Shown: positions 11,801 through 64,000 of the stretch, piece after piece
How positions within the stretch are numbered: position 1 is the first letter of the stretch
Layout: each line of letters starts with the position of its first letter
Origin: Bugula neritina
Lineage: Eukaryota; Animalia; Bryozoa
Length of the DNA stretch: 64,000 nt
NCBI GenBank assembly: GCA_964035545.1
Contig: OZ037772.1
Coordinates: forward strand, 1,116,001 to 1,180,000
Direction of reading: 5' to 3'
Program-made: the position numbers and the translations under genes
The notes under the pieces: generated by a model
Database searches by the model: none
Seen by the model: only the letters and a program-made list of their open reading frames with translations
What the model was told of the DNA's origin: nothing

Positions 11801-13275
11801 ATGTTATACAGTATACTATGTTATACAGTATACTATGTTATACAGTATACTATGTTATACAGTATACTATGTTATACAGTATATTATGCTATACAGTATA
11901 TTATGCTATACAGTATATTATGTTATACAGTATATTATGTTATACAGTATACTATGTTATACAGTATATTATGTTATACAGTATATTATGCTATACAGTA
12001 TACTATGTTATACAGTATATTATGTTATACAGTATACTATGTTATACAGTATACTATGTTATACAGTATACTATGTTATACAGTATATTATGTTATACAG
12101 TATACTATGTTATACAGTATACTATGTTATACAGTATACTATGTTATACAGTATATTATGTTATACAGTATATTATGTTATACAGTATACTATGCTATAC
12201 AGTATATTATGTTATACAGTATGCTATGTTATACAATATATTATGTCATACAGTATATTATGTTATACAGTATATTATGTTATACAGTATACTATGTTAT
12301 ACAGTATATTATGTTATACAGTATACTATGGTATATTATGTCATACAGTATATTATGTTATACAGTATACTATGTTATACAATATATTATGTTATACAGT
12401 ATATTATGTTATACAGTATACTATGCTATACAGTATATTATGTTATACAGTATGCTATGTTATACAATATATTATGTCATACAGTATATTATGTTATACA
12501 GTATATTATGTTATACAGTATACTATGTTATACAGTATATTATGTTATACAGTATACTATGGTATTATATGTCGTACAGTATATTATGTTATACAGTATA
12601 CTATGTTATACAATATATTATGTTATACAGTATATTATGTTATACAGTATACTATGCTATACAGTATATTATGCTATACAGTATATTATGTTATACAGTA
12701 TATTATGTTATACAGTATACTATGTTATACAGTATATTATGTTATACAGTATACTATGGTATATTATGTTATACAGTATACTATGGTATATTATGTCATA
12801 CAGTATATTATGTTATACAGTATACTATGTTATACAATATATTATGTTATACAGTATATTATGTTATACAGTATACTATGCTATACAGTATATTATGTTA
12901 TACAGTATGCTATGTTATACAATTTATTATGTCATACAGTATATTATGTTATACAGTATACTATGTTATACAGTATATTATGTTATACAGTATATTATGT
13001 TATACAGAATACTATGTTATACAGTATATTATGTTATACAGTATATTATGTTATACAGTATACTATGTTATACAGTATACTATGGTATATTATGCCATAC
13101 AGTATATTATGTTATATGGTATATTATGTTATACAGTATACTATGCTATACAGTATATTATGTTATACAGTATACTATGTTATACAGTATACTATGTTAT
13201 ACAGTATATTATGTTATACAGTATACTATGTTATACAGTATACTATGTTAAACAGTATACTATGTTATACAGTGT
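8898..13275. repeat. 4.4-kb satellite of a 17-bp unit (tatgttatacagtata[t/c])n with internal higher-order duplication
   Basis: 17-bp period; the rare variant 'agtatatactaagttata' recurs at ~9801 and ~10860 (offset 1059 bp). Confidence 0.97.
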
Positions 13276-13396
13276 ATAATGCTATACATAGACTGGAGTA
13301 TGATTTAATAGTCCAATTAGATACAAGTGTCAACTGCGTGTTCGTGTAAAGTACAGCCAATCATAATCCTGTGCCAACTTCAGTGTTTCACAGTTA

Positions 13397-25400: not shown

Positions 25401-26582
25401 ATCTGTACAGGGATAGGACCTCTCCTCATCCTCTCACTTGAAGGTAAATACTCTGTTTATTATAGTAAGTTTATTTATTTTATATATAATTATGTTGTAG
25501 TAAATAATATATTTTAATAATTAACAGTAAACAACTTCCACTCATCAGATATATTATGATATTGTTAGTATTTATCAAGTCACTGATGTTATTTTTAGCT
25601 AAAAGTTATGTAATAAAGACTGTAACATGCTGATAGTAGATGTTATATTCTTCATCACATGACTTGTAGCTAATAATAATATTAGTGAATAATACTGCCT
25701 CCCTGCAATAAGTTTATTTCTAGCTGCAGTAACATGCAGGATGTAAGCACAGGTAAAAGTGTATATTATATTGTATAGGTTTAAGGTGTACTCTGTGTAG
25801 TGTGCAGTGAGCTCTTAGTAAACTCTCTATTCAGTCTTCCTTTCCAAGCCTTCGCCTGGTAGTGTAGAGGATAAGGACTCCACACTGCTAAGTGAGTTAG
25901 TGCTGCAAGGGGTTCAAACCCACCTATCAGCGTGTCTAGTTAATATACTATGCAAGTGTTTTACAGTAATTTTAGAGGTGCTCAGTCTAACAACTGTACA
26001 GACTGCCAGCTACATATGAGTTATGAGTTGTAGTTTGACTTCAGTCTAGTGCTGCTGTTGTTTTGGTCATCAGATAATTTAAATATAAATAATTTGATAC
26101 TTTTTGACTGCCATTACTGAGACTATGTAATTTGATAATGGCTGGTAGAGCAGTGTTTGCTGGTGGGACTCAGGTGGCTGTGGTTGGTTCTTGTTAAGTA
26201 TTTTATATGTGATAATGTTGGAGTAGCTGCAGTGGTATTAGAAGTACACACGTGGGTGTGTTCTTGTTAAGAGCCACAGGCTAAGTTTGTGAGTCAAGGT
26301 CAATATTGTTGTATAATGAGACACTATTTTCTGCTCTATTTGAGTATTTACTTCATGCATGTAACCTGCTTAGTTGCATCTTTAAAGGCAGTCTGTCTGT
26401 TTCTCTCAATACACACCAACTGATACAATATGATGCTATTATTTACAGGTCAACTGGTGCTTACTGTTCCCAGAGAAAGTCTTGGTGTGAGTGACTGGGT
26501 GAGGGACATTGCGGTGTGTAACAGAGACACAGTGTTTCTAGCATGTAGAGATGGTTTGAGGAGATACACAATAAAATACTAA
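19448..26582 (+). CDS. TRIM (RING, B-box1, B-box2, coiled coil, NHL-like beta-propeller) E3 ubiquitin ligase, ~620 aa, apparently intact
   Basis: Exons 19448-19629, 21770-21950, 22148-22337, 23440-23645, 24080-24359, 24754-25443, 26449-26582; all GT-AG, phases compatible, total 1863 nt. RING CGYC..PRTLPCLHVYCMRC..CAYCR; B-boxes CDVC..FCVD..LCQQH and CEHH..CSKC..FCMRC; propeller repeats (LYIVDW, YPRPVCI, HPTGISFD); aataaa at ~26759. Confidence 0.88.
22592..23239. mobile_element. hAT-like non-autonomous element in TRIM intron 3
   Basis: Termini cagtggtgtcccacc / ggttgagagcaactg; near-identical 8-bp flanks ctttaact / ctttaatt; related 3' end at ~20300-20431. Confidence 0.65.
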
Positions 26583-29164
26583 ACTTATCAGCTACAGGTT
26601 ACTAATAATCAGCTCAGTGAGGTACTGAGAGATAAACTAGATAATATTTGTCATCAACATAATTATTTCATTACAATTCATCAATACACACACTCTGTAA
26701 TTATAGTTGGATATGAGATGTTTTACTGTATCAAATATGTGTTGCTATTTTACCATCTAATAAAGTTTATTTGCTAGCGAAAATATAGTCTGTTTTCATG
26801 CCTCATTAGCTTTAGTTCAAGTTGAGTTCACTTACTAAAAAATAATCTTTACTGGAGCAGTAACTGTAAATGACTTGTCTGCGGGAGAATTTATTCACTG
26901 AATTGACATGCAGGTGCAAGTAACTCCAACATGACTAAGTAAATTTATTCCAACCATTCACAATAATATACATTCCATTGCTGTGCAAACAATAGCATTG
27001 AGTAGCCAATCAAATTGTTTCTTGTCTTGCATTCAGGAATCTGATAAATAATATATAAGACAATCAGCTAGATATAAACACTGTATTACTCTACACATGA
27101 GCTGTCTGTGATGCAGCTGCTTTGTAAACTGTGTGTAATTTGATGAGTTTAGTTCAATTGGTTGCAGTTTAATTATGACATGTTCACCCTCATGTAATAT
27201 TAGAGGACAACTCCTCTCCAGTGTGCAGTGGTAGTATACTATTAGTCAAAGGAAGTGCTCAGTATAATATAAATAGCTGACCACTCCTACACCAACACTC
27301 CTGAACACCAGGTAGACGACAAGAACTCTTGAACACCACTCAGGTTAAGGGACTCCAGGCACCTCTGATTACCATCCAAGGCAGACGTGTTCTGGATCAC
27401 AGTCTTAACTCCTCACAGACTAAGACAGGAGCCGGAGTCATCCTCACAGCCAAGCAACCCATGCCAATATACCAACCCTAGCTGACCTGAATACTACAAC
27501 TTATATATAGTATTCGGAATAACTCCAAAGTAGCATATTTCTGTTAAAATAACATTAATAATAAACAGATAAATTATATATTTACTGATTCAATCACTAT
27601 TTGAGTTTTCAAATTAAAATTCAATAAGAGACATCAGCAAGTAATAATCATATGTTATGTAATAATACATGCCACAAAAAGGCATCACTCTAAAATTTAA
27701 CAAAATGTATTAGCAGTTATCTATACTGAGATTATAATGTAATACTAATGTTGCATAAAGTATTAAACTATCAACCCCCTCTCATATTATTATTTAACCT
27801 TTGACCTACAAACAATGATTAAATTATTTTCTTGTTGCTATACTGTCTTTTTTTTTAGTTGGCTCACAGAAACAGTTTCAATCTAACAATGTAGTGTTGA
27901 TACAAATCAGGGTATATAAGCTCAACAATAAAACATAAGAAATAATTATCCTCAATATCCTAAGGAATATTCCAGAGAACACTGCAGGCTGAGCTAAGAT
28001 ATTTTACAACTACATGCAGTTGACATATCTTCATGAATTGTGGACCATTTTGGTGTTTCTGTGTGCACAGACAAGTTGCAATGACTCCAACAGAAATTTT
28101 TTTAGTAGGTTTCAGTTCATCTTGAATATATTACAGCTTGTTGTCTTTTGGTGGAATATTATTGATGATACACTACCTTGTTTGCCTCAATAGTATTGAT
28201 GGTAGACTACCTTTTTTGACCTCAATAGTGTTGATGGTACACTACCTTGTTTGGCCTCAACAGTATTAATGGTACACTACCTTGTTTGGCCTCAACAGTA
28301 TTAATGGTACACTACCTTGTTTGGCCTCATTAGCCTTGCTAATATAAAATTAAGAGCACAACTTGCACGATTTAACTAATTTAACTTGGTTCATATTATG
28401 ATGTTAATATGTTGACATTTATAACCTCTAATATATTTCTATGTTTATAACCTATCAATATGCTCTGATCTACAGTCTTTATTGTCATTCAAGGTGTTGC
28501 TCACTGCTGGTCAACCCCATTAACCCCCAACTTACTGTCTACATAAAAAACTGTCTACTCTCCCTCCATGGTACATAGCTCATACAATGTGTATAATTAT
28601 TTGCTTTTGCACATTCATTACATAAAATACCAGCCATTGTGTTAAAAGTAGAGTTTTGTTGTATAGTCTCACATATTGGAACATGGCCTTAAGATTTGTA
28701 GTTTCTGAGGCTTTTGTGCTATTGCTGGAGAAAATTGCTAAGAATTTACTGCAGTGAATCTTTGTATAAACATTACTTATGAAATGCATATCTGTGGAAT
28801 ACTTGATCTACTCTGTATCATGTAAACTAACTTACACACAAGTTATATACAGCTACTACTTGATAAGGAAGTAATAGACTTACACTAACAGAGTTATTGA
28901 CATGAAAAAGTAAATAATATTTAAATTGTGATGACTAAGTAAGTGGATGAGTCATAAACTAGTCAAAAAATAATTTCTACAAACAAACTTTATTGAGTAA
29001 ATGTGACTACAGAGTCTTGACAACATAGCAGAGTAATTATGTTACATAATCATTACTAATCAACATCAAATACTGCATATAAACAGTGCAAGTCCTGTGG
29101 AATATATAATATTATACTGTGAGTAGAACACAATATATTATATTTGACATGTACTATTGATGAC

Positions 29165-29955
29165 CTCACTGAGCTGATTATTAGTAAACTGTAGCTGATA
29201 AGTTTAGTATTTTATTGTGTATCTCCTCAGACCACCTTCACATGCTAGAAACACTGCGTCTCTGTTATACACAGCAATGTCCCACACCAAGTCACTCACA
29301 CCAAGACTTTCTCTGGGAATTGTTACCATCAGTTGACCTTTAAAAAATATAATGTCATATTGAATCAGTTTGAAACAAACAGACAGACTACAGTGACATC
29401 ACAACAGCTGACACAACTACATGCAAGTTTTTACTTTCCAGTATAATCTAGTAACTGAAATATATTCGATAATAATACAATAAATTTCAAATATATTTCT
29501 CACTCAGAAAGACTTCCTTTAAAGATGCAACTAAGCAGATTATGTTGAAGATAATAAAGTTCTACCAGTCAGTATTGAATAATTCACTGAGCTGCTCTAC
29601 TGTTTACTTCATAATAAATGACAACATGGAGAGACTCAACATAGAAATTTACCCCCTCAGCAAATATGATTATACAGGAGAGAAGATATATAATATAAGT
29701 ATTACATACATGAAGTAAATATTCTAACAGAAAATAGTGTCTCATTATACAACTGTATTGACCTTGACCCACAAACTTAGCCTGTGGTTCTTATATAGAA
29801 CACACCCACATATCTACTTCTAATAATACTGCTACTGCAGCTACTCCAACATTATCACATATTAAATACATGACAAGAACCAACCACGGCCACCTGAGTC
29901 CCACCAGCAAACACTGCTCTACCAGCCATCATCAAATTACACTAGTCTCAGCAAT
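29165..29955 (-). pseudogene. Orphan terminal exon (29337-29204) plus upstream intron and start of 3'UTR of a TRIM paralog, inverted
   Basis: Reverse complement of ~26115-26625; 134-nt exon GQLMVTIPRESLGVSDLVWDIAVYNRDAVFLACEGGLRRYTIKY* vs GQLVLTVPRESLGVSDWVRDIAVCNRDTVFLACRDGLRRYTIKY*. Confidence 0.85.
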
Positions 29956-40790: not shown

Positions 40791-41566
40791 TCAATACACC
40801 AGAGTTGTATATGTGCAACATACTGGAAATACTTGCTAGCCTGTAATCGGCAACTGTAGAGGTGTGCTTCTTGCTACATGCTCTAATGCGTGTAAGAGGT
40901 AAGAGGACTATCAATATTAGTAGGAGTACCCAAGTACCAGTAGACATAGTAGCTGTAGAAAGTCTATCCCAATCAGTAACTGTAAGCCGTGAGGGCTGAG
41001 ACTATAACTAGGAATATAAAAAACTATAACTTGAGTATAACTAATTGAAGGTGAGTTAACATAAATTAAAAAATAATAAATATAATTACTACAACATCAA
41101 AATGAAATATGCATTATAAATATTTATATTTTTATTTTATAATAATTTTTTAATTTATTTATATCATTTTATTTAGGTTCATCCCCTTTCATTATGATTA
41201 ATGAAATTGATAAATCATATTCATAACGATAATGATGATCACTTAAAAAAAATTGATAAACCCATAATCATAACCATAATGGTTATATTTATTATTATCA
41301 TTTATCGCTTATCAGTGATAATCATAATCATAATGATAATGATAATCTTGATCATAATCAATATGAATATCAATATCATGTTATACTTATTCAATAATTA
41401 TAATTGATTGATTCTTATTCATATTAATAATGAATAAAAAATTATATTAACACTACAACTTACTTAATTAGAGTATTACATTTAGTGATTTACTATTACT
41501 ATTACTATCAGTATTATCACTATTGGCGTATTAGTATTACTATAGTATTAGTATTAGTATTACTAT

Positions 41567-41870
41567 TGTTATAATTTTCTGTTTTGGGTTGATATGCTAT
41601 CCAGAGAGTCTATTTATCTAGTATAGAACTGCACCAGGCTAAGTCGAGTGAACGAGTATATTTTATACACAATTATACATTATAAAACACGATACATTAT
41701 TTCCAACAAGTTACACATCTAATCTATTTCACACTCTAGCTTCGACTGAGTTAGCAGCGGGAAACTACAATTGCTGCTAACTATCAACTACGCTAATTGG
41801 CTATCCATTGTTCCGGGTCAATTACGCGACCCTACATGTTGTGCTGCTGGTAGTTCCACGAACCACCACA
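41567..41870 (-). repeat. 3' LTR of Gypsy copy 1
   Basis: Direct repeat of 48720-49023; preceded on the element strand by purine-rich ggtgggggcgg (41871-41881). Confidence 0.97.
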
Positions 41871-42151: not shown

Positions 42152-42903
42152 CTAGAGTCCTTGTTGAGCACGCCGGTGCTTGGCTTGGCATGTACGCAGT
42201 TTCCGTTTCATACGGCATACGGATCCCTTCAGCTGGAAGAGTCCTGTGGTAGTGTTGAGTAGATCTGGCGCCAGCTGGGTGAACTCTTCTTGTAATCGTA
42301 GGAGGCGTTCTTCTACTGTAGCTAGTCGTACTGGGTCTGGGGACGGTGTCCGTCTCTTCGCCGGGGTAGGGGAGATCTCTCCTTCTTCTGGATATGTAGT
42401 TTCCTCGGGGGTGTAGGTAATTGGAGGGCGGTCAGACACCAACGGGGATTGTTGGCGGGCGTTGTCTAACACACGTTGGAACCCCGAGGATAGAACGGCT
42501 AATAGCATGGCCTTCTTTACCAAAGGTCGTATATATGTGAGGAACTCCGGGTACAGCTTAGCGTCGACCACATAGTTTTCTCCAGGGAAACAGCCCGCCG
42601 CTCTGTGTCTGGTGACGGGGTAGGGATACACATCATTGTACCCGCAGGGGCAGAAGGTCAGTAGGAGATGAGCATTGACGTGTAGTTTAAGGGAGCGGTG
42701 AGAGGCGCAATCTTCACCGCAGATCTGGCATCTCGTCCGTCCTCTGGACCCCCAGGCTGTTTCTATTTCCTCTTCGGTTTGTGGAGACACCCACCGCCAA
42801 CGGCGGCGTAGTGGCTCAGGCCGGTCACCACTAGTATAGTCCTCCGGATACGGAGCGGGAAGTGTTCTATCCCGTACCCTGGTTGTAGCGGGTCGAGTGT
42901 AAT
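42152..42903 (-). CDS. Gypsy ORF3: C2H2 zinc finger plus leucine-zipper protein (second exon of a predicted spliced mRNA)
   Basis: Open from acceptor tttttcag| (42904) to TAG at 42152; C-x2-C-x12-H-x3-H (CQIC...HVNAH), C-x-C-x12-H-x4-C, PAKRR, heptad repeat; no ATG near the 5' end, no TM segment. Confidence 0.8.
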
Positions 42904-43216
42904 CTGAAAAAGTTTCAACAGTGTTAGTACATTACACTGCTGTGTTGTCAGCTTGAACAGCTTGGCAACTCCTAATTCAGTTACCTCGTAGAGATTAATG
43001 GTAGTGAATAGTCAGATAGAACCGTATTGCAATGAGATTATAAAAATCTCTAAGTCAAACTGAGTTCTTACTACGGTATTTCACTAACCTATCTCCAGCT
43101 CGATTGACTCAGTGAGTCAGAGCTGAGCGATGCAATCTAGTTTCGTATTAAGATATAGTTAACTCACCCCACGATCTGTTGTCGTAAGACATACTGAATA
43201 TGTGAAATGGTTTGAA

Positions 43217-46200
43217 CTACTGCTTAGAAACACGTCTACTCTTGACTGCATCAGCGTATGAAAAGATCGAGCAACGTGGTTGGGGTGCGTGACTAAGACT
43301 TTGTGCACCCGGCGGATGAATTTTGTTCCTACTTCCGCCGATACAAAAGTTGATATTTCCGTGGTGTTGACAACTCCCACATTTGCTCGATTCTTTTCTC
43401 GTACGGTTTTCCCCTAGACTTTCATGTGTGCCGCTTTTAACGCAGTCACATACGAAGTCCTTCAAGTATGCGGGGGGTTGCCTCGTACGCTGTCCCCTTT
43501 CTAGGGGGGGGTGACACGCTTGCCGGTTCGTTAGTAGGGGCCTCTAATGGCGTCTCTACTTCACCGTCAGCAGTCACCTCTTCTTGTTCTCCGGATGGAG
43601 CCCCTCCCTCCGTGGGGGTTTGCACTTCCGGAACCGGCTCGGTTTCTGGAAGTGATGGAATTAGACTTGGCGGTGGCGGACACGCTTCTGTTGCCAGAAG
43701 CTGCCGCTCCTCTCTCACCAAGTTTTCTTCCCGCGGTATGACCTCTTCGTATTCAGGTCCATGCCGCCGTCGCCCGCGCGTTGTTGTCTGCCTCCTGGGC
43801 TCTAACAACGGGGGGGCTTCTCCCATTCCGCCGGGGCTAGCCCAATACGGTTTCAAGCGAGACTCATTCTGGATAGACACCTGTCCTGAGCGCTCAATCT
43901 TGTACGTATGATTGGGCATAGCCTCGACGACCACGTAGGGGCCTACGAACTTAGGCTTCAGCTTATCAGCCTGTCCGCGGCGCCTACGGTAATTGACCAT
44001 CCACACCTTATCTCCTCTTTGATAGAGGGGTGGTTCATCGGAATCTTCATGCCGCACCTTCCACTGCTGTTGACGCAGTATCTCGTGTGCGGCCTTCATC
44101 CGTTCCACTAGTTCACTGGCATACTCGTGGACTGAGTTATCTTGCTCTGGAACGTGATAGGTGAGATGGTCAGGGACACGAGTCTCTCTCCCGAGCATCA
44201 AGAGGTTTGGGGTCTCACCAGTACTGGTGTGTGGGGTGCTACGGTATGCACGCATGACTTGCGGCAACACCGTATCCCATTCCTCTTGACCTCGTCCAAG
44301 GAGGAGACTCCGGAGCGCATCACCTAACATCCGGTTGTTGCGCTCCACCACCCCGTTACCTTGAGGGTGGTAGGGTGTGGTCCTGCTCTGATTTACTCCC
44401 CAGAGGTGGCAAAGGTCGCTCATCAGTTGAGACTGGAATTGAGCGCCTTGATCAGAGTGTATCTGTTCGGGAAGCCCAAAATAACAGAATACGTGTTGGT
44501 CTAGTGCCCTGGCCACTGTTGGGGCTGATGCATCTGGGATAGCCAGAGCATCCGCCCACCTAGTAAAGTGGTCGGTTAGTACTAGGATCCAATTATTGCC
44601 TCTGGGGGTCAGGGGCATGGGTCCGACCAGGTCTACAGCGACTACCTGCCAGGGCCTACCAGCATATAGCCTCCGCCGTCCTGCTTCACCAGGGGGGCGG
44701 CTATGCTTACTGGCCTGGCAGATCTCACACTGTTTGACTCTGAGCCGGACGTCACGCTCCATCTGCGGCCAATACCACCGGAGTCGTAATTTGGACATCA
44801 CTCGCTTGACCCCTGCGTGGGCCTGCTTGTGAGTATCCCAAATCAACTCACGGCGGATGGCTGTGGGGCAGACTACCCTCTTCCTTTCCGGGTGTCTGCC
44901 GCTGGCAGCTAGAGAGATGGTTAGCAACCCATCCTGCCCGATCCGCAGCGAGTCCCAACGCTGACAGTATAGCCGGAATTCGGCGCATCCCTGTCTTATG
45001 CGTTCCTCGCTGGGTCGTCGCCCTTCCCTTTTGGCCCGGTAGATGTCTGCCACGACTCCAGGCAGCTCTTCTTGGAGCTTCTTCAGCTCTCGAACATTAC
45101 CGGCCAGTACAGGGTTGGCGCGGAGGTTTTGTATATCCTCCGGGGACTCATCAACTCTTTGCCTGAGTTGACCTTGATCCCAGTCAAACGGTGCTCCGTG
45201 ATGAGCCAGCGTCTCCAACTCGCATCGAGGGGGACCTCCATCCCTCCTCTCGATGTTGAGACACTGTTTGCAACCTCCGTCAGGTCGGCGGCTCAACCCA
45301 TCCGCATTGCTGTGTCTCTTGCCCGGTCGGTGTTCGATCCGGTACGAGAATTCAGCTAGGATTTCGAGCCACCGGGCGACCTGACTAGAGGGCTCTGCTC
45401 TCCTGCACAACCAGATCAGCGAGGCATGATCCGTACGCAGCCGGAACTTCCTGCCATATAGGTATGGTCTGAAGTGCTTCACTGACTTGATTACTGCCAG
45501 CAGCTCCTTGCGGGTAGTGCAGTAATTTCGTTCAGCGGGAGAGAGAGACTTGCTGTAGTAGGCTACTACTACTTCTCGGCCTTCCTGCACTTGTGACAGC
45601 ACAGCGCCAACATTCTGGTCACTGGCGTTCGTGTCTAGGATGTACTCCAGAGTGGGGTCTGGGTAGGCCAAGATGGGCGCCGTTAGGAGGCAGCCCTTGA
45701 GGCGGTCGAACGCTTCTTGTTCGACTGGAGTCCACTGCCACGTCACTCCCTTTGCGGTAAGCCGGTTTAACGGCTGGGCTATGCCCGCAAAGTCTGGTAT
45801 GTATTGCCTGTAATACCCTACCAGCCCCAAGAAAGCCCGGAGTCCGGTCAAGTCTTGAGGGGTGACCCAGTCTTCTACTGCCCGTACCTTTTCGGGATCC
45901 GTTGCCACGCCGTTTCGACCGACAACGTGCCCCAGGTACTTGACCTCCGGCTGCAACAGAGCGCACTTGGAAGGTTTGAGCTTAAGACCGGCACCTCGGA
46001 GTCTCTCGAAAACCTCCTGCAGACGACTGACATGTGTCTCGAAGTCTGGAGAGATTACGATGACATCATCGAGGTAGACCAGCAGTGTCTTCCAATGGAG
46101 TCCGCTAAGGACTTGTTCCATCAGCCTCTGGAAGGTGGCTGGGGCGGAGGTTAACCCGAAAGGCAGCACCTTCCACTTCCACAAACCGTCCCGTGTGATA

Positions 46201-47786
46201 AACGCCGCTTTCTCTTGGGCGTCGGGACTCAGAGGAACCTGCCAATAGCCGCTTAGCAAGTCTAACGTACTGAAGTACTTGCTGCCGGCTAGGGCGTCCA
46301 ATGACTCGTCAATACGAGGTAGAGGGTAGGCGTCCTGTATGGTTACGCTATTGAGTTTGCGGTAGTCCACACAGAACCGCCAACTGCCGTCTTTCTTCCG
46401 GACCAGTACGACTGGCGAGCTCCACGCACTATGGGCGGGCTCTATCAGTCCCCGGTCCAGAAGATCCCGTACTTGCCGGCTAACCTCCTTCTCTTTCTCC
46501 GGCCCCAGCCTGCGTGTGGGCTGCCGGACAGGGACTGTCCCTGCAGTCAGCAGTATTTCGTGTCTGACAATTCCAGTCAGTCCCACGTCATGTTCTCCGC
46601 TGCTGAACACATGACCGTAGTCGCGTAGTAACTTGGCCATAGCTTGGCGCTCTCTGTTACTCGCGCAGCCACCACTGGCCGTCTCGTATAACTCCCGGAG
46701 ATGTGTTGGGACTGCCCCTCGTCCCTGAATAGGGTGTCGAGGGGGTGCCTCTGTCGCATCACCCAGCGATGGGCCTACGTCTCCCTCTTGAACAGAGTGA
46801 AAACGGCCCAGCATCGACCCAGCCGGGAGCTTGATAGGCTCGGTAAAGGGGTTGACGCACTGCACTAAGATCTCCCCTTGCTCAGTCAGCTGATTCAGAC
46901 TGCTGGCAAGTTGGATCTTTTCGTGCGCGCCTTCAACCACCCCGAGTCCAGAGATCCGGCTACTATTCACCCTGCAGTGAATGGTAGCCCGGGAGCGGCC
47001 TGGTATGGTACGGTTGCGTACCACTTGCACACCTCCCACTAAAGGGCAGCCGAACTTGTCGACGCAGGCGAGTTCCCGCCCGGACATCATCATTGCAGAT
47101 CTGCTAAAATCTATGTGACATCCGTGCCGTTTAAGGAACGGCATCCCGAGGATAGCATCCTCCTTGAGCTGACTGACGATGAACGTCTCTTGGATCGTTT
47201 GATCGCGGACTCGTCCCGTCAGCTCAATTATACCATAGAAGGGAAGGCACGACCCGTCAGCTAGGGTGCCGTATTCCCCTTCGTATGCTTCCATCTCGCC
47301 CCTGACCCTAGCACTGAGGGTGTCGAAGAGTTGGTGGCTTAAGAGGTTCGTGGTACAGCCCGAATCAATGAGAAAAGTAACAGCCTTGCCTTCCAGTTTA
47401 CCGGGCAAGAAATAGCTGTTCCCATGGGGCTGCCTCTGAACTCTCTCTTCAGGCCTGACTCTCGCAGGGAGTACCTCCCTCGCTTTGGGTCGCGAAGGAG
47501 GTCTCTTGGGGCGGTGATAGGTAGGCCTCGGGGGTGCCGAGGCTGGTTTCTCAGCTACCTTTGTGTGCTCCCATCCAGACTCTTGGACTTGTAGCCCTGT
47601 GAATCTGTTGTGAAGGGGCATAGAAAAGGCAGCCGCGGGGCGAAGCCCCTTGCTGGTCCGTCGCGGCTGTTGCCACTGTTGGTTGCCAGTACGCGGTGCC
47701 CGTCTGGGTGACCTGCGTTTCTTCTTCCCTAGAGGTTTCGTCGGCCCGCGGAAGGTGGGAACATCTGCGGGCCGCGGTAGTTTAAC
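43217..47786 (-). CDS. pol: Gypsy pol (protease, RT, RNase H, integrase), entered by -1 frameshift; extra base in a C8 run near the 3' end
   Basis: FLIDSG, FCVDYRKLN, PFGL, YLDD, TDH, HHCC zinc motif (THKQAHAG..CEIC), DLVGP/SDQG/ERNN, KLKPKFVGPY. Annotated ORF stops at 43446, but the RTRQPPAYLKDFV tail lies in the adjacent frame, which ends at 43217. Confidence 0.93.
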
Positions 47787-48688
47787 CCCTGATTTAGGAA
47801 GGGACAATATCGGCGGAAATGTCCTTGATTTCCGCACTCCCAGCAAAAACTGACTGTTTCTCCCTGTGGCGGCGCCAATGGCCGCATGGGCTCAGGGGCG
47901 GTACTCACTGGGTTTTGTGGGGTCAGTGTTGCTATCAGCTTGGCTAGCATGTCCGTCAGTTGAGTGACTTTTGATGCCGTCGCCAACTGGGACACGGCAG
48001 CCGCGGCGGGGGTTTCCTCCCCTTGTCCCGCGGCCGTGTCTGCGCGGTCTATCTCCACTTGGCGGGAGCTTCCGCGACTTTTATGCATTTGGTTAGCTAG
48101 GAGGTAAGCTTCCCCCTCAGTCAGAGCATCTTCAACGGTGGTGACTCCCCTAGCTAGAAACTGGTGGTGGAGACCCAGATCGTCGACAGATGCTATGAAA
48201 GCGTCGAGGGTGTACCTCTCGCGGTTGACTGGGGGCAAGTCGCTGTACGCGATCTGTGCCAGCTTCATGACCGCGGTGGCATGCTCCCGCAGCGGGGTGC
48301 GGGGATCACGCCGCAGCCTCTGTAATCGGGCCCTGGCATCTGTAGTCGAGAGGCCAAAGCGGGCCCGCAGAGAAGCAAAGATGTTATCAATGTCTACGCC
48401 CAGCCCATAGGGCTTGGCTTTGTCCATCAATGCCATTCTAAGCTTCAGCAGGGCCACCCTAGGGGGCCACTGAGCGACGTCCATTACGTCGCTAAACTCT
48501 TGGATGAATTGTTCCACCTCCTCTTCACCCGTGAAGGTGGGCGCCTTTAACCTGTAGCGGTCTTCAGCTAGTTCTCGCGGAACCCTTCGCTCTTCTACTA
48601 CATGGTTAACAGGCATTGTCTCTACAGCATTGTCTCTACGCTCACCTTCGATTGCCGGTGGTTGAGTTTCAGCATTTTCAGTCTCCAT
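47729..48688 (-). CDS. gag: Gypsy gag, 319 aa, with CCHC knuckle
   Basis: ATG 12 nt after the PBS; capsid-like PTFTGEEEVEQFIQEF; CWECGNQGHFRRYC. Confidence 0.93.
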   Translation of the reverse strand: METENAETQPPAIEGERRDNAVETMPVNHVVEERRVPRELAEDRYRLKAPTFTGEEEVEQFIQEFSDVMDVAQWPPRVALLKLRMALMDKAKPYGLGVDIDNIFASLRARFGLSTTDARARLQRLRRDPRTPLREHATAVMKLAQIAYSDLPPVNRERYTLDAFIASVDDLGLHHQFLARGVTTVEDALTEGEAYLLANQMHKSRGSSRQVEIDRADTAAGQGEETPAAAAVSQLATASKVTQLTDMLAKLIATLTPQNPVSTAPEPMRPLAPPQGETVSFCWECGNQGHFRRYCPFLNQGLNYRGPQMFPPSAGRRNL

Positions 48689-48700
48689 CTTGGATGCACT

Positions 48701-48718
48701 ATCCCACCGCTGCCACCA
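48701..48718 (-). promoter_or_regulatory. Primer-binding site complementary to the tRNA-Leu 3' end
   Basis: TGGTGGCAGCGGTGGGAT, 1 nt from the 5' LTR; complementary to ...AUCCCACCGCUGCCACCA of eukaryotic tRNA-Leu. Confidence 0.85.
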
Positions 48719-48719
48719 C

Positions 48720-49023
48720 TGTTATAATTTTCTGTTTTGGGTTGATATGCTATCCAGAGAGTCTATTTATCTAGTATAGAACTGCACCAGGCTAAGTCGA
48801 GTGAACGAGTATATTTTATACACAATTATACATTATAAAACACGATACATTATTTCTAACAAGTTACACATCTAATCTATTTCACACTCTAGCTTCGACT
48901 GAGTTAGCAGCGGGAAACTACAATTGCTGCTAACTATCAACTACGCTAATTGGCTATCCATTGTTCCGGGTCAATTACGCGACCCTACATGTTGTGCTGC
49001 TGGTAGTTCCACGAACCACCACA
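48720..49023 (-). repeat. 5' LTR of Gypsy copy 1
   Basis: tgtggtggttcg...ttataaca on the element strand. Confidence 0.97.
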
Positions 49024-50911
49024 CTATTACTATTAGTATTACTTACAACTTGCTTATGCAAGGGAATTAAATCTTTAAAGCGTAGCATCCTTTTCAAGCA
49101 AAATAAGGATAATAAGTTTCGTCAAATTGAGTTAAAAACTACAACTTTTAAGTCACAAGTATAAAGCAACTTATGCTCAGTCATCACTAATCCTAGTGAG
49201 TACGGCAAGCATATAGCATAATTTATTTCACAATGCGACAAGATTATCTAGACGGTGCGCTGACGCCTCTCATTGTACTTAAGCAATATCCAATTGTACG
49301 GTTTTTATGACTTTAAAATCCGTTTTTGAGAAGCAAGGCTAGATAAAAATTAATGATCGATATTGACTCGCTAAGAGTACTCATGTAAACCCGCAAACTA
49401 CAACTTTTAACTTGACCGCAAAGCTGGAAGTACGATAAGCGTGGCCGTATTGATTTCAGGCGAATTTTAGTTGATTTCTTTCAAACTGCTGAGAAGTAAT
49501 ATTTGCTTCCATTTTATGTCTGTATCAGCCATCAGGGCTATCGCGATACAATTATAAATGTTGTTAATTCAATCAATATTATGAAATAATTAATGTAGGA
49601 AATTCAATTTTGACTATATAGAATAATCTCAATCTAAATAAGTATTATTTATTTATTGTAACACTTGCACATCGTCTTACTCTGACTCTTAGTCAGATAA
49701 CATAGTACATACTGATACTCATACTGATACTCAATCCCATACTCAATCTCATACTGAGTCTGATACTCATAGTCATAGTGATAGTCTTTGCCAGATTATT
49801 GCTAGATAATTTAAGCTAGTACTAGTACTACTACTAGTAGTACTACTACTAGTACTAATAATCACAGTACTAAATACTACTAATAAGTAATAGTAGTAGT
49901 ATTAGAGTAATACTAATACTAATAGTAATACTACCACTAGTAGTAGCAGTAGTGCTAGTAGTAGTAGGCTACATGATGATGATCATTATGATTATGATTA
50001 TGAAGATGGTTATTACTATAACTATTACGGTATGAGTATAACTATAACTGTATTAGTATTTGATTTTATTTTGCATTGCTAATTGAAGACCATGCGTTAA
50101 AATTAACTGTTTCTCTCTTTTCTAAATTACATTTCAAGTTGCACACTAATAGACATATATGCTTTCAATTTTTTTGGTCTATCTTCAAGTTGTGAAACTT
50201 GACCAGTATGACTACGACTAACTGTAACTAGAATAAAATATTGAATAATAGAGAAGTTCCATATCGTTACCCCTCCTTTGACTTGTGCTACCGTCGGTAG
50301 TGCTAAAAGAGTGGAGTTAAAGAAAAGCATAATCACAGAATTCACAGCCTGCTGATTGGAGATTTTTGTGGTCTAGAGATTGTACTGGGTTACAGAGATC
50401 TTTTTCCGTCTGTGAATTTTTGATCCCTGCGGTTGTTTCTGACTGTGGGTAGTTGGAGGTGTTGAGGGAGTGGGCTCACTGGGTAGGTTATATTATTGTA
50501 ATCATATTAACCAACTTGACAGTTTACTAATTCATTGTCTAACTCTGTCTGTCTTAGTCTAGTAACACTATTTATTTACTTATTAATTTATTTATTCGAC
50601 TAAATCTTGTCTGTCTTTGTCTAGTAACACTATTTATTTATTTATTTACTTATTAATTTAATTAAATTACTAGTTTATATTACCAAGTTATATTACTAGT
50701 TTATGTACTAGTATATTACTAGTATATTACCTACTATAATTTATACTGCGAGTCCAAGTAGCTGCTGTAACTTATGCTGTGAGTCATGACTAACTGTTAT
50801 CACTTATACTGTGAGTCAATTATCAAAAGTAGAGATATGTTGTGTATGTGAGATATGTGAGGTTATTTAGTGACTAGTTCGCTATTTATAGAGTTTTGTT
50901 TCTATTAATAG

Positions 50912-57900: not shown

Positions 57901-59722
57901 AATAGTTACTGTTTTATAGCATGTGTATAAATAAGACATTAGAAAGATAGCTTCTCACTCTAATCCATGTATACATGTGAAATATTGTTTTAGTTTTTTG
58001 CCTTTGAGGGCCACATATAAATGTAGGCTAGTAGTAGAAATAGAAGCAAGAGTGTCCAACCTTTTCAGAGCGAGGGCCACTACATGAAAGCAATTAATAC
58101 TTCATGACGAAGGCCACATTGGACACGTTAGCTTGCTCTGAGGGCCACAGCATCAGTATTTTTAAATTTACTTTATTCCAAATTCCTATAAATCACTACA
58201 CAATAAAGTCCCAATAGTTACTGCAGGCAGTATGTTTTATAGCATGTGTATAAATAGGAAATTAAAAAGATAGCTTCTCACTCTAATCCATGTATACATG
58301 TGAAAAACAACTTCAGGTTTTTGCCTTTGAGGGCCACATAAATGTAGGCTGGAGACCACATCCGGCCTGGGCCGCCTGTTGAAAAGCCCTGCTTTAAATA
58401 GTTGGTATATAAGTATGCCAGTGACCTAAAATTTAATAGTCACTCTAGTGTTACATTTACACTTAACACAATTCAAATATTGTATATAATAATCTACTAT
58501 ACTCCATTAGTATAGTATAGTAATTGTAACCACCTGCAGGATGGTCACATGACCACTGCTACTTCTCAGACAGTTTGCTAAATGACAGAATAAGAAGAAT
58601 GATGGCTGATCAGATGTATAATAACATAGTTTATCAGTTCACTTGAAGTCTTAAATTATTTTTGTTGAAAGTTAGTTGCTTGCATTTTAAAACTTGTTAA
58701 TAAAACTATTATAACTATACAATACTAGGTTTATATGTGACTGCAATGGAATATTTACAGTGAAATTTACAGTCCAGTTCTTCGTGATGGAAATTTTTTA
58801 TCTGCAGAAGAGCTCTAACTGAAAAACTGTTATCTAAAGTTTGTCACTTAAAGTACTATACAAATATTATTAGCAGCTTGACATTTGTTATCATTAAGGG
58901 GTGTTTAGCATAAATATAATACTTGAGATAAACATTCTCATGTGATATAATGTAACCTGAAGTTATATTATATGACTTGACTATCTCTACTAGAGTTAGG
59001 GTGGGTCACCTGACAGCCCACACATATCTACACAGGTGTCAGGTGATAATGGTACAATTGGCAAAGTAGGTAAAACTATATAGCACATTTTCAATATTAA
59101 GGTTTGAGGCAGGTTAAGTAGTTAAGAAGGAGTTAAGGTTTGAGAATGAGGTTCTTAGTTTGGGGTTTGGGTTTTGAGTTTGTGGTTTACCCTCCTAATT
59201 ACGCTTAACGTATTGTACGCCATAACAGCAAATTTCAGCCATTCCTGGTATAAGTTGCAGCGTTAATCAAGCACTGCTTGGCTCAAAAAATCACACCAGG
59301 CAGAGTTGATATGGTACTATAAAATTTAAAAAATACTTTCCGCTGGTTTGTTTTAATCGCTTATTGTTGATTTAATTTAATAAATTCAAAAGTTTCAAAG
59401 GATTAAAATATCTTTTTCACCTTGCTTAAATTAAATTCAGCTTAAAAATGTAGATTTCACTAATTACTAAAGTATGCAAACCAACAATGTAAAAATTAAT
59501 TGGACAGCTTAAATATTTTTATTATTCAAATTAGTTTGCACAATTATATATTTAATAGACACATATATTTAAAGGAGAGGTTTCTTTTTTTAAATGCTTT
59601 TATCTAGTCAAGAACATTATTATCACATTTTTTGAAAATAATTTTGCAATAATTTGTAAATAACATTCAAAGGAGTACAAGTAACCGCAGACAAGAATTA
59701 GCCTTATTATGATTGGTCATGG
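51996..59722 (+). repeat. Segmental duplication of ~955-8870 plus ~14060-16572
   Basis: Exons, introns, 3' flank, repeat modules and nested MITEs are all colinear; the 17-bp satellite and the 13397 MITE are absent. Confidence 0.92.
52034..56200 (+). pseudogene. Fibrillar collagen pseudogene, copy 2 (internally deleted)
   Basis: Colinear with 994-8400, including introns. About 2.9 kb is deleted at ~52690 (fusing the exons at 1654 and ~4560); further deletions at ~55140 and ~55495 remove COLFI exons. Confidence 0.88.
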
Positions 59723-60058
59723 TGTGGTGGTTCGTGGAACTACCAGCAGCACAACATGTAGGGTCGCGTAATTGACCCGGAACAATGGATAGCCAATTAG
59801 CGTAGTTGATAGTTAGCAGCAATTGTAGTTTCCCGCTGCTAACTCAGTCGAAGCTAGAGTGTGAAATAGATTAGATGTGTAACTTGTTAGAAATAATGTA
59901 TCGTGTTTTTATGATGTATAGTTGTGAATAAAATATACTCGTTCACTCGACTTAGCCTGGTGCAGTTCTATACTAGATAAATAGACTCTCTGGATAGCAT
60001 ATCAACCCTAAACTGAAAATTATAACAGTGGTGGCAGCGGTGGGATAGTGCATCCAAG

Positions 60059-61018
60059 ATGGAGACTGAAAATGCTGAAACTCAACCACCGGCAATCGAA
60101 GGTGAGCGTAGAGACAATGCTGTAGAGACAATGCCTGTTAACCATGTAGTAGAAGAGCGAAGGGTTCCGCGAGAACTAGCTGAAGACCGCTACAGGTTAA
60201 AGGCGCCCACCTTCACGGGTGAAGAGGAGGTAGAACAATTTATTCAAGAGTTTAGCGACGTAATGGACGTCGCTCAGTGGCCCCCTAGGGTGGCACTGCT
60301 GAAGCTTAGAATGGCATTGATGGACAAAGCCAAGCCCTATGGGCTGGGCGTAGACATTGATAATATCTTTGCTTCTCTGCGGGCCCGCTTTGGCCTCTCG
60401 ACTACAGATGCCAGGGCCCGATTACAGAGGTTGCGGCGTGATCCCCGCACCCCGCTGCGGGAGCATGCCACCGCGGTCATGAAGCTGGCACAGATCGCGT
60501 ACAGCGACTTGCCCCCAGTCAACCGCGAGAGGTACACCCTCGACGCTTTCATAGCATCTGTCGACAATCTGGGTCTCCACCACCAGTTTCTAGCTAGGGG
60601 AGTCACCACCGTTGAAGATGCTCTGACTGAGGGGGAAGCTTACCTCCTAGCTAACCAAATGCATAAAAGTCGCGGAAGCTCTCGCCAAGTGGAGATAGAC
60701 CGCGCAGACACGGCCGCGGGACAAGGGGAGGAAACCCCCGCCGCGGCTGCCGTGTCCCAGTTGGCGACGGCATCAAAAGTCACTCAACTGACGGACATGC
60801 TAGCCAAGCTGATAGCAACACTGACCCCACAAAACCCAGTGAGTACCGCCCCTGAGCCCATGCGGCCATTGGCGCCGCCACAGGGAGAAACAGTCAGTTT
60901 TTGCTGGGAGTGCGGAAATCAAGGACATTTCCGCCGATATTGTCCCTTCCTAAATCAGGGGTTAAACTACCGCGGCCCGCAGATGTTCCCACCTTCCGCG
61001 GGCCGACGAAACCTCTAG
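60059..61018 (+). CDS. gag: Gypsy copy 2 gag, 319 aa
   Basis: One visible aa difference from copy 1 (VDDL vs VDNL). Confidence 0.93.
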   Translation: METENAETQPPAIEGERRDNAVETMPVNHVVEERRVPRELAEDRYRLKAPTFTGEEEVEQFIQEFSDVMDVAQWPPRVALLKLRMALMDKAKPYGLGVDIDNIFASLRARFGLSTTDARARLQRLRRDPRTPLREHATAVMKLAQIAYSDLPPVNRERYTLDAFIASVDNLGLHHQFLARGVTTVEDALTEGEAYLLANQMHKSRGSSRQVEIDRADTAAGQGEETPAAAAVSQLATASKVTQLTDMLAKLIATLTPQNPVSTAPEPMRPLAPPQGETVSFCWECGNQGHFRRYCPFLNQGLNYRGPQMFPPSAGRRNL

Positions 61019-64000
61019 GGAAGAAGAAACGCAGGTCACCCAGACGGGTACCGCGTACTGGCAACCAACAGTGGCAACAGCCGCGACGGACCAGCAAGGG
61101 GCTTCGCCCCGCAGCTGCCTTTTCTATGCCCCTTCACAACAGATTCACAGGGCTACAAGTCCAAGAATCTGGATGGGAGCACACAAAGGTAGCTGAGAAA
61201 CCAGCCTCGGCACCCCCGAGGCCTACCTATCACCGCCCCAAGAGACCTCCTTCGCGACCCAAAGCGAGGGAGGTACTCCCTGCGAGAGTCAGGCCTGAAG
61301 GGAGAGTTCAGGTGCAGCCCCATGGGAACAGCTATTTCTTGCCCGGTAAACTGGAAGGCAAAGCTGTTACTTTTCTCATTGATTCGGGCTGTACCACAAA
61401 CCTCTTAAGCCGCCAACTCTTCGACACCCTCAGTGCCAGGGTCAGGGGCGAGATGGAAGCATACGAAGGGGAATACGGCACCCTAGCTGACGGGTCGTGC
61501 CTTCCCTTCTATGGTATAATTGAGCTGACGGGACGAGTCCGCGATCAAATGATCCAAGAGACGTTCATCGTCAGTCAGCTCAAGGAGGATGCTATCCTCG
61601 GGATGCCGTTCCTTAAACGGCACGGATGTCACATAGATTTTAGCAGATCTGCAATGATGATGTCCGGGCGGGAACTCGCCTGCGTCGACAAGTTCGGCTG
61701 CCCTTTAGTGGGAGGTGTGCAAGTGGTACGCAACCGTACCATACCAGGCCGCTCCCGGGCTACCATTCACTGCAGGGTGAATAGTAGCCGGATCTCTGGA
61801 CTCGGGGTGGTTGAAGGCGCGCACGAAAAGATCCAACTTGCCAGCAGTCTGAATCAGCTGACTGAGCAAGGGGAGATCTTAGTGCAGTGCGTCAACCCCT
61901 TTACCGAGCCTATCAAGCTCCCGGCTGGGTCGATGCTGGGCCGTTTTCACTCTGTTCAAGAGGGAGACGTAGGCCCGTCGCTGGGTGATGCGACAGAGGC
62001 ACTCCCTCGACACCCTATTCAGGGACGAGGGGCAGTCCCAACACATCTCCGGGAGTTATACGAGACGGCCAGTAACGGCTGCGCGAGTAACAGAGAGCGC
62101 CAGGCTATGGCCAAGTTACTACGCGACTACGGTGATGTGTTCAGCAGCGGAGAGCATGACGTGGGACTGACTGGAATTGTCAGACACGAAATACCGCTGA
62201 CTGCAGGGACAGTCCCTGTCCGGCAGCCCACACGCGGGCTGGGGCCGGAGAAAGAGAAGGAGGTTAGCCGACAAGTACGGGATCTTCTGGACCGGGGACT
62301 GATAGAGCCCGCCCATAGTGCGTGGAGCTCGCCAGTCGTACTGGTCCGGAAGAAAGACGGCAGTTGGCAGTTCTGTGTGGACTACCGCAAACTCAATAGC
62401 GTAACCATACAGGACGCCTACCCCCTACCTCGTATTGACGAGTCATTGGACGCCCTAGCCGGCAGCAAGTAATTCAGTACGTTAGACTTGCTAAGCGGCT
62501 ATTGGCAGGTTCCTCTGAGTCCCGACGCCCAGGAGAAAGCGGCGTTTATCACACGGGACGGTTTGTGGAAGTGGAAGGTGCTGCCCTTCGGGTTAACCTC
62601 CGCCCCAGCCACCTTCCAGAGGTTGATGGAACAAGTCCTTAGCGGACTCCATTGGAAGACACTGCTGGTCTACCTCGATGATGTCATCGTAATCTCTCCA
62701 GACTTCGAGACACATGTCAGTCGTCTGCAGGAGGTTTTCGAGAGACTCCGAGGTGCCGGTCTTAAGCTCAAACCTTCCAAGTGCGCTCTGTTGCAGCCGG
62801 AGGTCAAGTACCTGGGGCACGTTGTCGGTCGAAACGGCGTGGCAACGGATCCCGAAAAGGTACGGGCAGTAGAAGACTGGGTCACCCCTCAAGACTTGAC
62901 CGGACTCCGGGCTTTCTTGGGGCTGGTAGGGTATTACAGGCAATACATACCAGACTTTGCGGGCATAGCCCAGCCGTTAAACCGGCTTACCGCAAAGGGA
63001 GTGACGTGGCAGTGGACTCTAGTCGAACAAGAAGCGTTCGACCGCCTCAAGGGCTGCCTCCTAACGGCGCCCATCTTGGCCTACCCAGACCCCACTCTGG
63101 AGTACATCCTAGACACGGACGCCAGTGACCAGAATGTTGGCGCTGTGCTGTCGCAAGTGCAGGAAGGCCGAGAGGTAGTAGTAGCCTACTACAGCAAGTC
63201 TCTCTCTCCCGCTGAACGAAATTACTGCACTACCCGCAAGGAGCTGCTGGCAGTAATCAAGTCAGTGAAGCACTTCAGACCATACCTATATGGCAGGAAG
63301 TTCCGGCTGCGTACGGATCATGCCTCGCTGATCTGGTTGTGCAGGAGAGCAGAGCCCTCTAGTCAGGTCGCCCGGTGGCTCGAAATCCTAGCTGAATTCT
63401 CGTACCGGATCGAACACCGACCGGGCAAGAGACACAGCAATGCGGATGGGTTGAGTCGCCGACCTGACGGAGGTTGCAAACAGTGTCTCAACATCGAGAG
63501 GAGGGATGGAGGTCCCCCACGATGCGAGTTGGAGACGCTGGCTCATCACGGAGCACCGTTTGACTGGGATCAAGGTCAACTCAGGCAAAGAGTTGATGAG
63601 TCCCCGGAGGATGTACAAAACCTCCGCGCCAACCCTGTACTGGCCGGTAATGTTCGAGAGCTGAAGAAGCTCCAAGAAGAGCTGCCTGGAGTCGTGGCAG
63701 ACATCTACCGGGCCAAAAGGGAAGGGCGACGACCCAGCGAGGAACGCATAAGACAGGGATGCGCCGAATTCCGGCTATACTGTCAGCGTTGGGACTCGCT
63801 GCGGATCGGGCAGGATGGGTTGCTAACCATCTCTCTAGCTGCCAGCGGCAGACACCCGGAAAGGAAGAGGGTAGTCTGCCCCACAGCCATCCGCCGTGAG
63901 TTGATTTGGGATACTCACAAGCAGGCCCACGCAGGGGTCAAGCGAGTGATGTCCAAATTACGACTCCGGTGGTATTGGCCGCAGATGGAGCGTGACGTCC
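60961..64000 (+). pseudogene. pol: Gypsy copy 2 pol with a premature stop in RT
   Basis: TAC>TAA at 62470-62472 (GSKY>GSK*); the frame continues through YLDD, LDTDAS and into integrase. Confidence 0.9.

Follow-up and report, generated by a model that had tools for sequence, protein, structure and literature searches.

An env-slot zinc-finger gene, very probably spliced from the gag leader, is conserved in one Ty3/Gypsy clade: a locus of Bugula neritina

Introduction

Retrotransposons with long terminal repeats (LTRs) are commonly treated as simple gag-pol(-env) elements. A 64,000-nucleotide stretch of the bryozoan Bugula neritina (assembly GCA_964035545.1, contig OZ037772.1, positions 1,116,001 to 1,180,000 of the forward strand; hereafter the window, with coordinates counted from its first letter) contains a Ty3/Gypsy element, on the minus strand at 49023-41567, that raises the question of what else can occupy the place of env: between its pol gene and its 3′ LTR lies an intact open reading frame (ORF), here called ORF3, which an initial annotation had taken for a spliced gene other than env with a nuclear accessory role. 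How is such a gene expressed, does it belong to the element, and what might its product do? We show that ORF3 is a conserved accessory gene of one Ty3/Gypsy clade, restricted to that reverse transcriptase (RT) clade among the loci examined, and that it apparently represents a zinc-finger family undescribed in the literature searched.

Expression of the third gene

The ORF3 exon (42152..42903, minus strand, 752 nt) lies in a stop-to-stop frame, 42931-42152, whose in-frame ATGs are found solely at codons 142 and 241, which leaves its 5′ end without a start codon, as had been noted. The initial annotation proposed that the gene borrows its start from gag, and the signals it relied on are in place. 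The 5′ splice site (48640..48645, minus; GAAG/GTGAG at 48646/48645) lies 43 nt into gag in phase 1 and is identical in the second copy of the element at 60101/60102, while the branch point and 3′ splice site (42904..42929, minus) lead to an exon start at 42903 that is likewise in phase 1 of the ORF3 frame. The predicted coding part of exon 1 (48646..48688, minus) comprises the first 43 gag coding bases, that is 14 residues and one base, and joining 43 and 752 nt gives 795 nt, or 264 codons plus a stop. Scored ad hoc against the 423 GT and 590 AG sites of the element's sense strand, the donor takes first place and the acceptor third. The TACTAAC presented as the branch point does stand at 42929-42923 but is by itself unremarkable, with three copies within the element. 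Residues are numbered below along the stop-to-stop ORF (P0001), where the sequence past the junction begins with residue 10.

Relatives of the gene carry the argument further. Conservation among homologues begins at the predicted acceptor position, and in 17 of the 18 homologues that were called upstream of it the residue before the exon is Ser (15) or Leu (2), the residues expected where a CAG or TAG acceptor is translated in frame; the eighteenth is P0026. Derived from a contig of 5.3 kb, this natural record opens with MAEEGTELPIPRNEDHTR and then runs on as ORF3. It shares its first 14 residues exactly with the N-terminus of the Gag protein P0134, beyond which the similarity to Gag ends, and its junction is the one predicted for the window, after residue 14 and replacing the Gly of an E-G pair that 44 of 58 Gag N-termini, variable in other respects, retain at the donor position. 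The leader is matched at 10 or more of its 14 positions by 24 of 120 Gag homologues, and P0026 is the only clear gag-leader-joined record among the homologues examined. Whether P0026 is a contig of RNA or goes back to a spliced RNA that was retro-copied, the splice is required, and we infer that a deletion hitting both exact sites by chance is unlikely. Since P0026 is joined at the predicted junction, the splice is well supported in the family; for the window copy it is predicted from these signals and this relative. The assembled contigs of an RNA run, compared twice, gave 21 and 19 short pieces, one of them inside ORF3 (42537-42755); the 42903/48646 joint is not among the 15 joints listed per comparison, beyond which there are 70 and 30 more, and such contigs cannot show absence. 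The three frequent ORF3 differences listed for one assembled contig run (X2), two silent and one not, are uninformative. ORF3 is thus very probably expressed by a splice from the gag leader.

Conservation and distribution

The translation contains the features that had been listed for it: a C-x2-C-x12-H-x3-H finger (42730-42668, minus), a C-x-C-x12-H-x4-C variant (42652-42590, minus), a heptad repeat and a basic tail. Among 521 candidates we found 70 homologues of 48-95% identity, none of which has a name or a Pfam domain, and none of the 10 homologue clusters looked up is named. The eight Cys/His ligands are retained in 88-96% of the rows covering them (C68 in 41/44, C71 in 40/43, H84 in 43/49, H88 in 46/49, C94 and C96 each in 48/50, H109 in 52/54 and C114 in 64/67) and five heptad leucines in 67-68 of 68-69, and the linker from domain to coil varies freely. 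With ligands and leucines kept in 70 homologues, ORF3 is neither a one-off captured exon nor disrupted in other copies, two outcomes that would have refuted the initial annotation. A profile built from 40 homologues drew in 126 clusters at 50% identity, and of the distant ones most match the finger region only; in 78 chosen sequences (19-83% identity to the query) seven ligands are present in 73-78 rows and the eighth is Cys in 56/72. ORF3-pattern scans of metagenome or viral contigs gave no locus, integrase scans of viral contigs gave no match, and the top ESM Atlas clusters are unnamed (0.96 for residues 36-165) and serve as leads only.

The distribution of the domain follows the RT phylogeny. 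A scan for RT kept 78 loci, 20 of which have at least 1300 nt after the integrase, and a tree of the window with 33 of the 78 places it in a group of 10 rows with support 97/82. The domain is present in all four assessable loci of this group (E 1.6e-18, 4.4e-18, 1.3e-11 and 4.3e-4) and absent after the integrase in 16 of 16 loci with RT identity below 60%. Two of the four, L001 and L002, are 98.8% alike, so that the four loci stand for three independent lineages; between these two, 110 domain codons differ by seven silent changes and one amino-acid change.

In all four sister loci the domain gene is in frame with pol, with no stop (L001 1694-6925, L002 980-6259, L003 2621-6724, L006 3859-6588). 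The domain is followed by a basic patch and a helical tail in L001, L002 and L006, and L003 ends earlier. More distant integrase fusions are P0324 (52% identity to the window pol) and P0325, and two further homologues are joined to pol fragments; a search for longer fused forms found none at 971-2770 amino acids, though P0324 shows that such forms exist. One clade is, to judge from its sequences, home to both a pol-fused and a separate, putatively gag-spliced arrangement. The chromodomain of chromoviruses steers the integrase, and the ORF3 domain might in the same way read chromatin or AT-rich DNA and direct integration, either fused to the integrase or in trans. The uninterrupted frame after the integrase in L001/L002, L003, L006, P0324 and P0325 agrees with such a role, as does the position of both window copies, and of many LTR flanks in contigs, within TAG/TAT/ATG-like repeats. 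The host sequence is, however, generally rich in such repeats, and in the window the gene lies outside pol behind its own acceptor. L003, too, keeps a phase-1 acceptor that ranks first of 596; a branch-like motif accompanies it, and an ATG stands two bases inside the exon. The phase-1 acceptor of L001 is middling (28/525), and L006 has none that convinces (85/810). We consider it rather improbable that steering of the integrase is what the protein does.

The domain is also found outside the elements. When 20 distant clusters were looked up, the four that carry an organism name were all bryozoan (Watersipora subatra and Bugula neritina), and P0262, P0320, P0321, P0213 and P0318 are annotated proteins of these two species with the domain, which occurs twice in P0213, P0318 and P0320. 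Three bryozoan proteins share a separate N-terminal piece of 50 residues with 35-37% identity across both species, and two of the domain-bearing genes are neighbouring Bugula loci. These proteins likely form a host gene family, and a zinc-finger family common to elements and bryozoan genes is a candidate case of capture or domestication. The domain tree (101 columns, long branches) gives no direction of transfer between elements and bryozoan genes.

The host-annotated proteins and the undirected tree, together with the many homologue records that are truncated or frameshifted, would suit a passenger: a captured host exon, or the relic of an envelope gene, with no role for the element. Yet the gene has been kept across the RT clade (76-80% RT identity) while its domain diverged to about 30% or less, and the ligands are near-invariant in the 78 sequences. 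An envelope relic is further opposed by hydropathy: neither a signal peptide nor a membrane segment is present in ORF3 (leader mean -1.1, best 19-mer 1.24), a best 19-mer of 1.6 is reached by 3 of 39 homologues, and the most hydrophobic stretch of ORF3 corresponds to helices of the soluble domain model. ORF3 is therefore not env, which bears out the initial annotation, and a passenger or decayed env is largely refuted and very hard to credit; ORF3 is almost certainly a real, functional gene.

Structure of the protein

The double zinc-finger domain is predicted at 42449..42826 (minus; residues 36-161). An earlier fold from 40 close sequences only left the finger domain unresolved, with a predicted local distance difference test score (pLDDT) of 50; from a diverse alignment, residues 36-172 were modelled as one unit (pLDDT 94.9, predicted template modelling score 0.86) made of an N-terminal helix, the C2H2 finger, the C-x-C-x12-H-x4-C finger, a strand and three helices. 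The two fingers have the spacings first described, but in the model they are part of a larger folded domain and not free-standing. Finger 1 has the classical C2H2 form, with C-x2-C-x12-H-x3-H and Leu at +4, although no Pfam family reaches its cut-off (zf-C2H2 scores 13.3 bits against a cut-off of 25.2), and zf-C2H2_4 reaches E 0.01 in 8 of 78 family members. Foldseek with the domain model returned nothing at E 0.001 (best 0.57 in the PDB and 0.96 in BFVD), and a comparison with 48,161 chains returned nothing at Z of at least 5, results that show neither a new nor a different fold; the best hit of a PDB sequence search with the close alignment has E 0.48.

Two familiar classes were considered and set aside. 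Krüppel arrays consist of canonical fingers joined by TGEKP-type linkers, whereas ORF3 has two fingers only, the second atypical, with five hydrophobic residues between them. A bZIP factor does not fit either, for a proline-rich linker precedes the zipper and the conserved basic run comes after it.

Beyond the domain, a coiled-coil helix of about six heptads is predicted to run into the basic tail (42158..42334, minus). Residues 200-258 are modelled as a single long helix with hydrophobic a/d positions over six heptads, and where distant homologues have a long enough tail the heptad repeat is found in 24/36 and a basic cluster in 23/36. The initial annotation had singled out PAKRR in the linker as resembling a nuclear localisation signal. 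This candidate falls: a run of three basic residues occurs in the linker of 4 of 39 full-length homologues only, against 34 of 39 that retain the basic tail, and PAKRR is a lineage feature. The accessory-factor reading of that annotation accordingly retains its conserved non-env gene, predicted zinc-binding domain and coiled coil but loses this motif as a conserved signal. The linker of the window copy also contains an Arg/Ser/Pro repeat (about 42360-42340) whose length varies in frame: P0006, 95% identical, has 12 residues more.

Charge is distributed unevenly along the family. The part N-terminal to the domain, short in the window's subfamily, is net acidic in 37/44, the domain net basic in 55/68. 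Acidic-hydrophobic 39-mers, counted in sequences that are related to one another, occur in 14/44 N-terminal parts against 4/51 C-terminal parts. The helix of finger 1 is Arg-rich, and finger 2 has Asp at +2 in 43/78 and Arg or Lys at +6 in 34/78.

Fingers embedded in one globular domain would also suit a protein-binding module, and this domain is found in annotated bryozoan genes, in some of them twice; both would agree with a counter-silencing or otherwise host-directed factor that binds a chromatin or small-RNA protein of the host, or acts as a decoy, and does not address the element directly. No enzyme or known reader domain was found in domain searches of the ORF3 family, however, and the basic surface points to nucleic acid. 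We regard a host-directed factor as an improbable answer, if a slightly likelier one than the steering of the integrase.

Possible functions

An acidic disordered N-terminus, a basic finger pair, an oligomerisation helix and a basic tail together make the build of an activator, and for this reason we put a self-activating role first. ORF3 is probably a nuclear self-regulator. More specifically, we favour a nuclear oligomeric zinc-finger protein that activates transcription of its own element, a proposal to which we give somewhat less than an even chance, and on the narrower question of whether the regulator acts at transcription rather than RNA export we consider the chances balanced. We speculate that the strong splice sites would make a short spliced RNA the early, default product, which would borrow the gag start codon and 14 Gag residues; the basic tail would bring the protein into the nucleus, the coiled coil would unite at least two finger pairs at a site within the element, and the acidic disordered N-terminal part would recruit host machinery, giving positive feedback. 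Foamy-virus Tas and the Tax protein of human T-lymphotropic virus (HTLV) are analogues of such feedback.

Several points weigh against self-activation. Nuclear location, DNA binding and activation are each read off sequence and model. The residue at +6 of finger 1 is hydrophobic (V/L/I in 61/78) and not base-reading, and the finger 2 helix of the window subfamily has two prolines. The N-terminal part is short in the window and lacks an acidic-hydrophobic tile in P0026, itself a single record, known as protein. The best structural neighbours of the domain, though DNA-binding tandem C2H2 pairs, namely Kaiso (Z 3.6, root mean square deviation 3.0, 57 residues aligned) and SALL4 (Z 3.4, deviation 3.0, 51 aligned), fall below Z 4 and so in the noise by the note of the tool itself, and likeness of fold would not establish a function. 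Five other lineages have the domain in frame with pol, an arrangement that a tethering role would explain as well. Finally, the sole precedent whose function has been studied, CERV from the Gypsy element Cer1 of C. elegans, acts in RNA export (PMC10309623).

CERV is a spliced, partly gag-derived nuclear protein encoded in the env slot and needed for the export of genomic RNA (PMC10309623), and its example suggests that the spliced ORF3 product may instead bind intron-containing genomic RNA, oligomerise and let it leave the nucleus unspliced. The layout is alike: env slot, splice in the gag frame, zinc-binding part, zipper, basic signal and proline-directed sites (PMC10309623). Strong splice sites create a need for the export of unspliced RNA, finger 1 offers an Arg-rich helix, and the nearest homologues P0006, P0007 and P0033 have an Arg/Ser/Pro repeat in the linker. 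The intron (48645-42904) is also pervasively more structured than shuffles, as ORF3 and the LTR are not, and more so than the exons, with a mean z of -1.85 over 37 windows against -0.63 over 10 (p 0.004), and the contrast recurs in L003 (p 0.005). It is missing, however, in L001 (p 0.36) and L006 (p 0.72). Folded as one 514-nt piece (z -6.2), the stretch before the acceptor hinted at a discrete element of the Rev-response kind, which windowed controls did not uphold, the pre-acceptor mean in 150-nt windows (-1.55) being no more structured than gag-pol (-1.95 and -1.86), and Rfam gave no match. Every match to a Leu-rich export pattern lies within either the folded domain or the coiled coil. Moreover, errantiviruses splice env from within gag with no exporter described in the available part of PMC12992720, so that the splice alone does not call for one. 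We place export of unspliced RNA by the ORF3 protein close behind, as somewhat less likely, and self-activation stays in first place.

Comparison with known systems

The closest precedent in layout is CERV, again a large non-env ORF flanked by pol and the 3′ LTR whose first exons are in the gag frame and whose product has a zinc-binding Cys region, a leucine zipper and a basic signal; its last exon shares the frame of the polyprotein, an arrangement found too in the sister loci L001, L003 and L006. The two proteins differ in build. CERV has 517 amino acids from five exons, a zipper in the half shared with Gag, a C4-type loop and a G-protein-like domain in a three-domain H-M-G arrangement, and is reported only from nematodes (PMC10309623); ORF3 has 264 amino acids, 14 of them from Gag, a pair of C2H2 and C2HC fingers and a C-terminal zipper. 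As ORF3 lacks the CERV domain build it is not filed as a CERV member, from which the published description sets it apart. The remark of the initial annotation that it did not recognise ORF3 as a described Gypsy gene stands for the protein, in the literature searched, and gives way for the layout, for which CERV is the precedent (PMC10309623).

Errantivirus env-F genes (gypsy, ZAM, idefix) also are spliced third ORFs lodged after pol and before the 3′ LTR, with a main exon joined to a short upstream exon and, in the idefix subclade, a donor within gag (PMC12992720, PMC13524379). Their products are equipped with a signal peptide, a furin site, a fusion peptide and a transmembrane segment, all of which ORF3 lacks; its own predicted product is soluble and of the zinc-finger type. 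In plants, Grande gene23 and Retand resemble ORF3 as conserved extra genes with pol on one side and the 3′ LTR on the other that are proposed nuclear regulators of unknown function, but the proposed nuclear ones among plant Ty3/Gypsy extra ORFs are antisense with their own transcripts, and the sense ones are env-like (PMC7264820).

In structure and by profile, the two-finger core is matched best, if weakly, by the tandem C2H2 pairs of Kaiso/ZBTB33, SALL4 ZFC4 and ZBTB38. ORF3 differs from these pairs in its C-x-C spacing, in the Cys that is the fourth ligand of finger 2, in having no Krüppel linker and in the extra conserved helices and strand that wrap the finger pair.

Foamy-virus Tas, HTLV Tax and Rex and the Rev protein of human immunodeficiency virus (HIV) are encoded 3′ of pol and made by splicing. 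ORF3 resembles them in both respects and in the nuclear action on its own expression that we propose for it; no relation in sequence or fold to these proteins is shown, and ORF3 replaces env instead of accompanying it. HIV Rev is also described in PMC10309623 and PMC7264820.

No such gene is described in the available parts of PMC13524379, PMC8220671, PMC6338049, PMC6238403, PMC8556966, PMC2774666 and PMC7264820, and a word search of the accessible text of mollusc and annelid LTR surveys did not find "zinc" or "ORF3". The gene is undescribed in this literature, taken without supplements, and Repbase, Dfam or GyDB entries may hold the ORF unannotated.

Within that literature, no animal Gypsy accessory regulator other than CERV has had its function tested. 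That the env slot holds a second, probably spliced and predicted nuclear protein, apparently unrelated and conserved across a clade, points to more than one origin of regulatory complexity outside the retroviruses. We tentatively put forward a wider picture, which as a whole seems to us rather less likely than not: an animal Gypsy clade of "complex" retroelements that carry a zinc-finger activator of their own where env would stand, its undescribed double-finger domain shifting between fusion to pol and splicing to gag and having been exchanged with bryozoan genes. If true, it would mean a self-activating loop of the Tas/Tax kind outside retroviruses. ORF3 offers a small, confidently modelled domain for studying the control that such elements exert over their expression.

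Other features of the element and the window

The assignment to Ty3/Gypsy follows from the order protease-RT-RNase H-integrase in pol and from two LTRs, a primer-binding site, a polypurine tract and a target-site duplication. The LTRs (5′, 48720..49023, TG...CA; 3′, 41567..41870, with the polypurine tract directly before it; both minus strand) measure 304 bp and have one mismatch between them, and because of this single difference we consider the element young. The 4-bp duplication ATAG stands on both flanks. The primer-binding site (48701..48718, minus) starts TGGTGGCAGC, as it does in 6 of the 10 closest loci, and is presumably of the tRNA-Leu type. Gag (47729..48688, minus) has 319 amino acids and a single CCHC knuckle, and pol (43446..47891, minus) encodes protease, RT, RNase H, integrase and an SH3-like tail. 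Pol, in the -1 frame, and the end of gag share 47891-47729, and the most stable local RNA structure of the element follows at 47674-47425 (z about -5 to -6); together they are likely a ribosomal frameshift signal. Pol of this copy has a frameshift near its 3′ end, at about 43,500. The second copy (59722..64000, plus strand) is inverted relative to the first with 98.8% identity, has an in-frame stop in pol at 62470 and ends at the window edge before ORF3.

Within the LTR are a 10-bp inverted repeat (48902-48935) and two occurrences of TGGATAGC, possible binding sites whose frequency is no more than chance gives. TGACTCA and TGAGTCA, a pair that we take to be AP-1-like, stand back to back at 43114-43100 in the non-coding stretch before the acceptor. 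AT-rich trinucleotide-like repeats (TAG/TAT/ATG) flank the insertions at 49024-49100, 41500-41566 and 59700-59721, and loose ends at 41567 among the assembled sequencing contigs have flanks of the same repeat type, possibly a target preference of the element.

Elsewhere in the window, a 17-bp unit repeated about 257 times forms a satellite at about 8800-13350 that yields spurious long ORFs, and interrupted inverted arms at 26126-26623 and 29163-29941, about 90% complementary and 2.5 kb apart, are possibly a DNA transposon or foldback element.

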